Below, one piece after another: positions 2,377-8,919 of a DNA stretch of 64,000 nucleotides. Location: positions 12,664 through 76,663 of the forward strand of contig CBDCYE010000001.1 of assembly GCA_965224025.1 (NCBI GenBank). The letters are read 5' to 3'. This stretch comes from Candidatus Multivorans sp. (GTDB lineage Bacteria; Acidobacteriota; Thermoanaerobaculia; Multivoradales; Multivoraceae). The position numbers were made by a program, and so were the translations under genes. Within the stretch, counting starts at the first letter, position 1. Each line of letters opens with the position of its first letter. The notes under the pieces were generated by a model, which had not been told where the DNA came from, made no database searches, and saw only the letters and a list, made by a program, of their open reading frames with translations.

Positions 2377-2405
2377 GCGAGCGGGGCGCTAGCCCGCATG
2401 TTTCA

Positions 2406-3552
2406 GTGCGCCGTGGTAAGGCGCCATTTCCCAGTGGGTGCGAATCCCGCCCGGCAACTGTCGCTCCAGCCGGAAGCAGTCGGAGCGGATGAAGGAGGTA
2501 ACGAGATCGTCTGAAGCACTCCGATGAAGAAGGGCCGCCTTGGGCGGTTCAGCGAGCATGCGGGCCGCAACGCGAGTGAACGCCGAGCAGGCCTCGAAAC
2601 GGGCAGTGCGGGAGCCGACCCGCCTGAAATACGGGGAAGGCTGCCACCGGTCGGGAAGCGAGCGACGCTTACACCGCCCGGTTCCGCCGGGGTAGTGGCG
2701 GCGGCACGCATGAAGAGGGAGATGGAGGCAACACGGGAAGCCCCCGATGGTGGCGTTGCACGCGCCAACCGACAACCCGCGAGGGAGAGGTCGTGGCCGT
2801 TTGGGGTGGCGGAGAGGCTCGTAGTACCGGGGATGCCGGGTAACTCCGGCGGAGGGAAGGGGCCTTGGTTCGGGAACAGCGTATGAAGGAGGGAAGGGAC
2901 GTGAGGACTGGCGAGAGCCTAACCGCCTCAAAGAGTGTTCGGAGACTCCAGAGGACGCTACATGCGAAAGCGAAGGAAGCTCCAGGCTTCCGGTTCTACT
3001 CGCTGGCCGACAAGATGTGGCGCGCCGACGTGCTGTCCGTTGCCTGGCAGGAGGTCCGCCGCAACGGCGGCGCTGCGGGCGTGGACGGTGAGACGGTAGC
3101 GGCGATCGAATCGCGCGGTGTGGACCGATGGCTTGGGGCACTGTCGATTTGCCGTAGGCTGAGCGAGTTGACGGCGCGGCGCTACGGACTGCTGGAACCA
3201 GCGGTGGTGGTGGGACGACTCAACCGGCTGATGACCGGATGGGCGAACTACTTCACGCTGGGGCAGGTGAGTCCGTCCTACGCGGCGATAGATCGACACG
3301 CGACGCGGCGGCTGCGCCAGTGGCTGTGCCGGAAGCACAAGGTGAGGTCGGGAAAGAGTGTGCGCTTCCCCGACGAGCGACTCTGGGAAGAGTACGCACT
3401 TACGCGCCTGACGGTGCGAACGGCCAGCCTTCCGTGGGCGAAGGCATGATCCCGTCCGAGAGCCGGATGCGGGAAAATCGCACGTCCGGTTCGATGAGCG
3501 GCGACTGGAAACGGAGCCGATCCAAGGCCACCGCGCCAGTCGTCGACTCTAC
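2406..3552 (+). mobile_element. Group II intron (IIB type, class E-like by recollection) with an internally deleted IEP ORF
   Basis: 5' GTGCG at 2406; domain V gagccggatgcgggaaaatcgcacgtccggttc at ~3460-3492; domain VI ending ...gactctAC at 3552. EBS2 tgcggg (2607-2612) and EBS1 tgaaata (2625-2631) pair with the 5' exon. Confidence 0.92.
2901..3449 (+). pseudogene. Group II intron-encoded protein retaining only RT0 and domain X; RT1-7 removed in frame
   Basis: RT0 segment LQRTLHAKAK...FYSLADK...AWQEVRRNGGAAGVDG joins directly (~3143) to the X-domain segment RLNRLMTGWANYF...RLRQWLCRKHK. No YADD motif. Confidence 0.85.
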
Positions 3553-3766
3553 CCGAGGCGTCTTAGGAGCTCGTTTTGGAGCTGAGGCGGGCGTTTGAGC
3601 GTTGGCCGCGCGCTATCGGTGGGCGTCAGGGGTGGTGAGCGGGTTCGAGTCGGTGCTCGGAGGCGTGGCAAGGCCGTGCGGCGGCGCTGCTGGGTGGTCT
3701 TCGGGCGCACTCCGGCCCGGTAGGGATGCGAGGCGCCGTATTGTGGGGTCGGGTTGGCGTCCGGCC

Positions 3767-5200
3767 TCAGGCCGGCGGGTGGTAGAGGGGTTTGCTTCGG
3801 AGGTTTGCCAGGGCCTGGGCGAAGTCGTTCTGCCAGGGGAAGGCTGTTGGCAGGTGGATCCAGATGCGGCGGTGTGTGATGCGTATGCGGGCGGCGATCT
3901 TCAGGAACTGGAGGCGCAGGGTGCCGCACTGCAGGCGGGCCTTTGAGGTGCCTGGCAGGGCGAGTCGTCGCACGGCGGCGAGCAGGACGTAGGCGAAGGA
4001 GGAGAAGTAGAGGCGCAGTTGATTGGCGGCCATGGTGGCGGTCGAGGTGCGGTCGGCGAACAGGTCGAGCTGCTGCTCCTTGATGCGGTTCTCCATGTCT
4101 CCGCGGGCGCAGTAGAGCTGCTCGTAGAGTGCCTGCTTGCCGGCGCGGCTTTTCGGCAGATTGGAGACGATGAAGCGAGGATTGCCGCCCTTCTCGAGCC
4201 ATTCCGCCTTGCCCGCCACGCGCCTCTTGCGAGACCAGGTGGAGCGTGTCCGGTAGCGGAACTCCCGGAACCGGCGCGACGCCTTGCCGGTGGCGCAGAA
4301 GCGCCGCCGCGACTTCGCAAGCGCCTTCGCAAGCCGCCTCGCAAGGCGCGGATTCTTTGCCAAGCCGAACACGTAGAAGAGTCCCTGCGTCTCGCACCAA
4401 GCCATGATCCGTTCCCGGCAGAAGCCCGAATCGCCGCGCAGGATGATCCGCGTGTCCGGCCACGCTTCTCGAATCCGGGCGACGATCGGCGCCAACTCGC
4501 GGACCGTGCCGGCGCTTGCGTCCTCATCCGCGCACCGCAGCCGCGCAAGCAGCAGGTGCCCGCCGCAGAACGCGTACAGCGGCATGTAGCAGTAGCACCG
4601 GTAGTAGCCGTGGAAAAATCGACCCTCCTGAGTCCCGTGCAGCGGATCGTCCGTCGCGTCGAGGTCCAGCACGATCTCCGCGGGAGCCTCCTCGTGAGCC
4701 TCCAGGAACAGCTCCACCAACAAACCGTCCAGTGCCGCACTGTCCGCCGGAATCCGCTTGTAGCGGTCCACTGAAGCTTTCTCCGGCAGGGACAACTCCA
4801 GCCGATTCAACCCGGATGCGCTCGCCAGAGGGCGACCCTTGTCCCGCGCCCGAAGACGATCCGCTCCCGTGATGTCCCGCTTGCCCACCAACAGCGCCAT
4901 GAACGCGTCAAGGCGCAGCTGAGTGTGATCATTCAGGTCCTCGTAGCCCAGAGCCAGACCGTAGACACGCTGAGACACCAGCTCCCGGACCGTGTGCTCC
5001 ACCGCCGACGGATTCCGGTAGTCCCGAAAACAAGACGCCATGCGCGCCAACAGGCCGATCCGAGCGTCCGCTTCCCGAAGCAGCAAGCCGCCGCCCTCCG
5101 TCGTCAACCGACCGCCGTCGAAACAAGCCGTCACCCGGCGACGACCGTGGAATCCGAACTCAAGCTGCGACGAAGTACACTCTGTGATCACGGGCCTCAC
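3767..5200 (-). CDS. IS1380-family DDE transposase
   Basis: LGYEDLNDH, IVLDLDATDDPLHGTQEGRFFHGYY, ILRGDSGF, LYCARGDMENRIKEQQ. Confidence 0.95.
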   Translation of the reverse strand: MRPVITECTSSQLEFGFHGRRRVTACFDGGRLTTEGGGLLLREADARIGLLARMASCFRDYRNPSAVEHTVRELVSQRVYGLALGYEDLNDHTQLRLDAFMALLVGKRDITGADRLRARDKGRPLASASGLNRLELSLPEKASVDRYKRIPADSAALDGLLVELFLEAHEEAPAEIVLDLDATDDPLHGTQEGRFFHGYYRCYCYMPLYAFCGGHLLLARLRCADEDASAGTVRELAPIVARIREAWPDTRIILRGDSGFCRERIMAWCETQGLFYVFGLAKNPRLARRLAKALAKSRRRFCATGKASRRFREFRYRTRSTWSRKRRVAGKAEWLEKGGNPRFIVSNLPKSRAGKQALYEQLYCARGDMENRIKEQQLDLFADRTSTATMAANQLRLYFSSFAYVLLAAVRRLALPGTSKARLQCGTLRLQFLKIAARIRITHRRIWIHLPTAFPWQNDFAQALANLRSKPLYHPPA

Positions 5201-5315
5201 TCCTGCGGGTAGACCAAATGTCTGATAACACTTGGATTATCCGCCGGATGAGGCCCGATCTCAAATCACCCCGTGAGATATGCGGGCTAGCGCTAGGAGA
5301 CTGCGCGGCAGAAAA

Positions 5316-8644: not shown

Positions 8645-8788
8645 TTCCCGAGGAGTTCCCAACGCAGTGTCGGACCTTAGCCCGGATAACAGCTTGTGGC
8701 GGCTCAGATTCCCTGTCCGCGGAGGGTGTCGGTTCGTTTGCCTCGTGCATCAGCCCTCTCGGCACCGACTTCCAGCCCAGTCGGGGTT

Positions 8789-8884
8789 AGGAGGGGTCAG
8801 CTCCCAGGTGCCTCTGAACGAGCGAAGCGCCACACCTCCCATCTCCTCCCAAGCGCTCACGTCACCTGGGAGCTGACCCCTCCT
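8789..8884. repeat. 22-bp perfect inverted repeat with a 52-bp spacer downstream of recA (MITE/REPIN-like or RNA hairpin)
   Basis: aggaggggtcagctcccaggtg (8789-8810) and cacctgggagctgacccctcct (8863-8884). Confidence 0.8.
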
Positions 8885-8919
8885 GCCCCAAGACGGGCGG
8901 GTGCGTCCGACGACGCCGG

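Follow-up and report, generated by a model that had tools for sequence, protein, structure and literature searches.

Homing of a group II intron into the end of an insertion sequence (IS) is known from RmInt2, which was shown experimentally to retrohome into both inverted repeats of ISRm17; its authors argued that, of two inverted targets, one is always on the lagging-strand template (PMC4615759). ISRm17 belongs to the ISNCY/ISDol1 group according to one listing (PMC10194956). Two other introns, RmInt1 and E.c.I4, home into ISRm2011-2 and into IS3-like transposase genes, respectively (PMC5894124, PMC3522654). The subject of the present analysis is a 64,000-nucleotide stretch of DNA from Candidatus Multivorans sp. 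(the window, G000:C2:12664-76663), in which the element at 2406-3552 is a group II intron lodged in the end repeat of an IS1380-family element. Homing into an IS repeat has already been published for RmInt2 and ISRm17; here the IS family is a different one. Our search, whose range excluded most of the subscription literature and the Zimmerly intron database, brought up no report in which a group II intron targets an IS1380 repeat, so a prior description is possible. We consider it likely, with a probability of roughly 85%, that the intron retrohomed into the transposase-distal repeat of the IS by pairing of its exon-binding sites (EBS), and that the window copy decayed afterwards.

Several properties are common to this intron and RmInt2. 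In both cases the protein lacks an endonuclease (seen here in full-length relatives), the target is an IS terminal repeat, and either repeat is usable. The intron-binding sites (IBS) of the target also lie at the same positions, i.e. IBS2 at -14 to -10, a linker at -9/-8 and IBS1 at -7 to -1, which were determined experimentally for RmInt2 (PMC4615759), and a CTAG is found directly upstream of IBS2 in the selected target of RmInt2 as well. Head-to-tail tandems, known among RmInt2 retrohoming products, occur here at L070, L130 and L252, where the 5' exon ends in ...CGAC[TC]CTAC, that is, in the 3' end of another copy. The two systems differ in the target (IS1380 here, ISNCY/ISDol1 for ISRm17), in the protein (453-471 amino acids in the relatives, 419 reported for RmInt2), in the range of hosts (many genomes of several phyla here, one strain there) and in the loss of the reverse transcriptase (RT) domain from the window copy. 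A sensitive blastn search with domains 1-3 against 72,556 plasmids gave an S. meliloti match of 66 nucleotides (nt) at most; because of this we take the intron not to be a close relative of RmInt1 or RmInt2, and its lineage appears to differ from that of RmInt2. Like RmInt1 in ISRm2011-2 and like E.c.I4, it has a multicopy IS as its homing site. However, those two introns lie in sense orientation inside the transposase gene, whereas the window intron lies in the terminal repeat, outside genes and antisense, at the transposase-distal end.

The insertion point was determined by comparison with a sister genome of the same genus (G026). Without the intron the IS consists of 2393-2405 and 3553-5286 and has a length of 1747 bp. 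Its ends read inward as CCCGCATGTTTCAC and CCCGCATATCTCAC, which are the same at 12 of 14 positions, and the end opposite the intron (5273-5290) reads GTGAGATATGCGGG-CTAG. Excision of the intron in silico regenerates CTAG-CCCGCATGTTTCA-C. The IS used as a query found five matching places in the sister genome, one with the intron and four without; two of the empty copies (L054 and L064), compared with the window IS, are 99.4% identical to it and read CTAG CCCGCATGTTTCA|CCGATGCGG. The insertion point is thus defined exactly by two versions of this IS that have no intron, and the original prediction that removal of 2406-3552 restores the IS end is borne out by both of them. A contig of sequencing run X1 likewise has CTAGCCCGCATGTTTCA immediately ahead of 3553, i.e. 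an empty IS end.

The intron itself has the GUGYG and AY termini of group II introns, with GTGCG at 2406 and CTAC closing at 3552. The Rfam model of domain 1 (RF02003) matches at 2432-2575 with 89.1 bits (gathering threshold 49) and that of domains 5 and 6 (RF00029) at 3458-3552 with 50.1 bits (threshold 40); the branch-point A is probably at 3546. The transposase of the IS is of full length, as it covers positions 5-432 of 435 in PF13701 (E=9e-147, 489 bits) and scores 390.7 bits against NF033539 (cut-off 180), so that the earlier description of an intact gene lying antisense to the intron stands.

The pairing with the target was investigated by aligning the domain 1 region of relatives, where 135 sequences gave 77 unique combinations of exon and EBS. 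The EBS1 loop is hypervariable and follows exon positions -1 to -7. On average 5.95 of 7 positions pair with the intron's own exon and 3.10 with other exons, a value that none of 5000 permutations reached, and at least six of seven pair in 58 of the 77 combinations. There is also a compensatory case, GGAATAA/TTATTCC versus TGAATAA/TTATTCA. In the window EBS1 (TGAAATA) pairs with IBS1 at 2399-2405 in all seven positions, one of them a G-U pair. The location of EBS1, proposed from the sequence of the window in the original prediction, is confirmed by this covariation; the segment forms a terminal loop.

EBS2, on the other hand, had been placed at TGCGGG (2607-2612), about 7 nt from its actual position, and overlaps there with a strand (2608-2613) of a conserved helix. 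That candidate is ruled out by the covariation of the helix with 2682-2687: ten of 11 distinct strand pairs in the relatives are completely paired (among them GTGGTA/TGCCAC, GTGGGA/TCCCAC, GCAGGA/TCCTGC and GCACGG/CCGTGC), several by compensatory changes. The sequence that does covary with the exon is CGGGC, which pairs at all five positions with 2392-2396 (G-CCCG), i.e. with the last base of CTAG and the first four bases of the IS. Examples from the relatives are ACGC/GCGT, GTGT/ACAC, CGGT/ACCG, CAAT/ATTG and CTGC/GCAG. In a fixed register the mean pairing over the 77 combinations is 3.08 of 5 for the own exon and 2.56 for other exons, again a level that none of 5000 permutations attained. 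Between IBS2 and IBS1 there is a linker of 2 nt (C2397-A2398). The paired target is consequently not the exact outer 13 nt of the IS, as had been proposed, but positions -14 to -10 and -7 to -1, including a CTAG base and leaving out the linker. The unoccupied opposite repeat would pair with EBS1 at six of seven positions, in agreement with the single mismatch predicted for it, and with EBS2 at all five. The coordinates of the features are collected in Table 1.

Table 1. Features of the intron and the IS1380-family element in the window (window coordinates).
Feature	Position	Strand	Remarks
Left 4-bp target-site duplication, CTAG	2389..2392	.	Same CTAG at 5287-5290; G2392 belongs to IBS2
Outer 13 nt of transposase-distal inverted repeat (intron 5' exon)	2393..2405	+	Joined to 3553 onward in intron-less L054 and L064
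Group II intron	2406..3552	+	1147 nt; Rfam RF02003, RF02005, RF00029; deletion derivative of a ~1994-nt element
EBS2 (CGGGC)	2600..2604	+	Internal loop 5' of three-way junction; covaries with exon -14 to -10
Conserved domain 1 helix, 5' strand (GCGGGA)	2608..2613	+	Pairs with 2682-2687; helix also in RF02005 alignment
EBS1 (UGAAAUA)	2625..2631	+	Terminal loop of hairpin 2619-2636; covaries with 5' exon
Helix closing EBS1 and second hairpins, 3' strand (TTCCGC)	2682..2687	+	Pairs with 2608-2613
Remnant intron-encoded protein open reading frame (ORF), 194 aa	2865..3449	+	N-terminal stretch joined in frame to maturase (X) domain
Domain 5, catalytic hairpin	3460..3492	+	RF00029 alignment and plastid domain 5 models
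Domain 6, ~57 nt short compared with relatives	3493..3552	+	Comparison with G025, G026b and G018 copies; RF00029 alignment
Remainder of IS1380-family element	3553..5286	-	99.4% identity to intron-less G026 copies
IS1380-family DDE transposase, 477 aa, intact	3767..5200	-	Antisense to intron; PF13701, NF033539
Transposase-proximal inverted repeat, unoccupied	5273..5286	-	Reads CCCGCATATCTCAC inward; 12/14 identity to other end
Right target-site duplication, CTAG	5287..5290	.	Matches left CTAG

The sequence of events that we propose is as follows. An IS1380-family element would first have inserted at a CTAG site, and a group II intron whose RT/maturase lacks an endonuclease would then have retrohomed between positions 13 and 14 of the IS, in the transposase-distal repeat. 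The target would have been chosen by base pairing between RNA and DNA, of EBS1 with IS positions 7-13 and of EBS2 with IS positions 1-4 and, in addition, the final base of the duplication. Across the family EBS2 would keep its match to CC[CT]G, the conserved tip, and EBS1 would follow the variable inner repeat. By analogy with other endonuclease-less introns, priming probably took place at replication forks. After insertion, the window copy would have shed its RT domain and part of domain 6. The intron separates the 13 outermost base pairs of the repeat from the remainder, and it may in this way affect the transposition of the IS.

The occurrence of the arrangement in other genomes was studied with a 23-nt motif from domain 1, for which species-representative genomes were scanned. 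It occurs in at least 118 stretches, and 80 of these were fetched. Their sources include Vicinamibacterales and other Acidobacteriota, Planctomycetota, Latescibacterota, Accumulibacter, and alpha- and gammaproteobacteria. In this unbiased scan the 5' end was recognisable at 64 loci. The pattern TAR+CC[CT][GC] was found ahead of 13 of these introns, with the first IS base at -13 (11 cases) or -12 (two cases), and in one further case the tip is at -11. TAR is present at -16 to -14 in 20 of the 64 and in 0-2 at each of 18 control offsets. Related introns lie 13 nt inside IS1380-type ends in Acidobacteriota and in alpha-, beta- and gammaproteobacteria; either end of the IS may be occupied, and the intron always reads inward from the tip. 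The central claim of the original prediction, that the exon-binding sites of the intron are matched to the terminal repeat of an IS1380 element, is upheld, and the pattern recurs in the relatives. Its proposed check on covariation between EBS and exon turned out positively for EBS1 and for the relocated EBS2.

These data also bear on the suggestion of a one-off ectopic insertion with EBS matches arising by chance. The intron is present as a single copy in the window's genome, as this suggestion would have it. On the other hand, it would have to account for the complete pairing of both EBS1 and EBS2, for the same offset in 13 of 64 independent relatives from several phyla, and for an EBS1 that covaries with the repeat, as in the compensatory case given above. 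We consider such an accident extremely improbable.

Group IIC introns target terminators and attC sites. They depend on a stem-loop and have no EBS2, as is generally known and is also stated in the literature (PMC7923331). The window intron resembles them in that it, too, targets a non-coding motif that recurs in mobile or repeated DNA, and one may ask whether the end of the IS forms a hairpin (CCGCAT...ATGCGG) in single-stranded DNA with the intron entering its loop. The empty copies do contain a 6-bp inverted repeat around the site (CCGCATGTTTCACCGATGCGG). However, the fold of the empty site as single-stranded DNA is not significant (z = -0.34; 61 of 200 shuffles fold equally well), other IS1380 targets have no hairpin, and the intron, unlike the IIC introns, has a covarying EBS2. 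Structural targeting of this kind is very improbable, and recognition by EBS pairing remains the preferred reading.

The neighbourhood of the introns was surveyed in 5.3 kb around 60 further copies, which were the best domain 1 matches to the window and as such are not an unbiased sample; eight of the 60 were without the motif. The survey comprised 57 analysable items, including the window and four other loci. A match to the IS1380 transposase (tblastn with the window protein as query) was found downstream of the intron at 19 of the 57 loci, adjoining the intron at 17 and far off at two. At 14 of the 17 the intron is antisense to the transposase and occupies the transposase-distal end, and at three (L195, L219 and L254) it is in sense orientation at the proximal end. 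The arrangement was inspected in detail at L187, L188 and L189. The proteins of the full-length relatives have RVT_1 and GIIM domains, about 453-471 amino acids and no nuclease domain. There are also many copies of ORF-less mini-introns of about 866 nt, in which the ribozyme domains are complete and the protein gene is absent. Mini-introns (L189, L195, L196, L201-L209 and others) are multicopy in the Vicinamibacterales genomes G068, G069, G080, G091 and G106, mostly in IS1380-type ends, and are accompanied in some of these genomes by full-length copies of about 1990 nt.

A maximum-likelihood tree was constructed from 76 domain 1-3 sequences from which the EBS segments had been removed. The IS1380-type label (20 rows) is spread over both deep clades. 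It requires 13 changes on the tree, at least nine of them forced by well-supported branches, and as few changes were seen in one of 500 shuffles. The habit of entering IS1380 ends is consequently either old, in which case escapes were numerous, or has been repeatedly regained.

A number of observations weigh against the reading that we prefer. Only about a fifth of the pattern-scan members are in IS1380-type ends. Other members adjoin triple tyrosine-recombinase elements (L230, L234, L249 and L205), an IS256-type transposase (L240) or ordinary chromosomal genes. In a fixed register no more than two of five EBS2 positions pair in 24 of the 77 combinations, many of which are not IS1380 members, and the register shifts within the family. 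The closest relatives, from the same genus and 86% identical, use a different target: the introns of G025, G033 and G012 and a fragment at G000 C1:4443709 sit in a repeat of about 100 nt that resembles a repetitive extragenic palindrome (REP), and their EBS1 is matched to that repeat (e.g. at seven of seven positions in G033). Finally, the 3' exon (3553-3562) reads CCGAGGCGTC in the occupied copy and CCGATGCGGC in the empty copies L054 and L064; the two differ at positions +5 and +9, next to the junction.

We note that large serine recombinases are found next to two further members (L200 and L221). At L230, L234, L249 and L205 the intron adjoins three consecutive tyrosine-recombinase genes, an arrangement of the recombinase-in-trio type, which suggests that some intron lineages were retargeted to the ends of such elements. 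A protein search of plasmids gave identities of at most 54%, and in the three best annotated plasmid relatives examined (H1, H3 and H4) the 3.5 kb around the intron contain no annotated transposase.

According to the original prediction, the intron and the IS may still transpose as one composite, i.e. the outer 13 bp still serve the transposase and the IS carries the intron along to new CTAG sites. The window IS has a repeat of only about 14 bp, of which 13 remain at the tip. Some composites are bounded by matching 4-bp duplications (TTAG..TTAG at L196 and L209, CTAA..CTAA at L206), a pattern to be expected also from a late arrival of the intron; at L188 and L189 the flanks at the two ends differ. 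In the related IS of G106 the repeat is longer (18 bp or more), and there the intron interrupts it. G106, the sole genome in which IS haplotypes were compared (85 informative sites were listed, roughly the last 35 of them in the flanks), contains three occupied and nine empty full-length IS copies. The three occupied copies represent three different haplotypes, and judged by those informative sites that lie within the IS, the occupied L204 equals the empty L255 and the occupied L201 nearly equals the empty L256. The G106 haplotypes fit separate retrohoming events, and gene conversion is also possible; no case requiring composite transposition was found in this genome.

The two genomes with the window composite point in the same direction. 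The sister genome carries the same composite at the same locus, with one base difference in the IS and an identical intron; to the right of the composite 1.5 kb of sequence are identical, and the left flank diverges further upstream. The two composites represent one shared event and not a second insertion, and no second composite was found at another site in either genome, whereas at least four empty copies are present elsewhere in G026. Movement of the composite is in our view unlikely, and the corresponding part of the original prediction is unsupported. Retrohoming of the intron into an IS already in place is the reading with which we continue.

The two genomes (the sister sequence being on G026:C2) are identical or nearly so from about position 2229 of the window to at least 6794, but upstream of about 2228 they diverge, and 69 mismatches were counted over a left flank of 1.5 kb; recent sharing or exchange of the segment is suggested by this. 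A related intron's 3' fragment is present at G026:C2:1911146-1911444 (L025), with a 3' exon that resembles the end of a related IS1380 element on the transposase-proximal side; this is a second, independent association of an intron with an IS end in that genome.

The decay of the window copy is evident from comparison with full-length relatives such as the 1994-nt intron of G025, which is 86% identical outside the deletions. According to breakpoints taken from BLAST coordinates, 792 nt are gone near 3146, and with them the RT domain, and a second deletion has taken about 57 nt from the distal part of domain 6. What is left of the ORF has GIIM as its sole Pfam match and scores 48 bits against TIGR04416 (cut-off 300), compared with 306 bits for the full-length G025 protein; in tblastn the aligned parts of the latter are confined to residues 3-89 and 352-453. 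No intact protein of this intron's lineage was found in the window's genome, where only fragments of related introns occur, and the other RT matches there are about 30% identical. In the sister genome at least four perfect empty sites are unoccupied and one is occupied. Because of the lost RT domain, the lack of an intact partner protein and the unoccupied perfect sites, the window copy is now probably an immobile relic. The RNA contigs found in metatranscriptomes derive from related introns and not from the window copy.

In our opinion the most worthwhile parts of these results are the family-wide pattern across several phyla and the pairing across the junction between duplication and tip. 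What had been known from one experimental case, RmInt2 in ISRm17, is extended to a different and widespread IS family, and it is a habit of lineages rather than an oddity. The 77 combinations constitute a map of the recognition rules of this intron family, among them that EBS2 reaches into the target duplication and pairs with its last base; the conserved TA at -16/-15 may be read by the protein. The results also raise the question whether an intron lodged in the repeat disables an IS1380-type element.

Taken together, one could propose that homing to IS1380-family tips is an old and recurrent trait of a multi-phylum intron family, a wider proposal that we make tentatively and to which we give rather less than an even chance. 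If it is true, RNA and protein together would read a junction that is made only by an inserted IS, namely the YTAR duplication joined to the CC[CT]G tip, and EBS1 would be retuned to the variable inner repeat of each IS. There would have been repeated escapes to triple tyrosine-recombinase elements, IS256-type elements and the REP-like repeat, as well as swarms of ORF-less mini-introns of about 866 nt. An intron that splits the repeat would then be a parasite of the IS and would curb its transposition.

Some minor observations concern the IS and the REP-like repeat. A solo fragment of 61 nt at G000:C1:27142-27202 is 95% identical to the transposase-proximal IS end and terminates in GCGGG-CTAG; the remainder of the IS is absent there. 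The REP-like repeat is GC-rich, has the core GCGCTCACTCCGCT and is found 5-12 times per genome in the genus. It sometimes forms inverted pairs about 1.85 kb apart that flank an ORF of 450 amino acids, and it is located at G000:C1:1107055-1109030 and at about ten other places. Spurious microRNA matches at 8780-8887 of the window come from a sequence that is similar to the upstream part of this repeat, not to its core.

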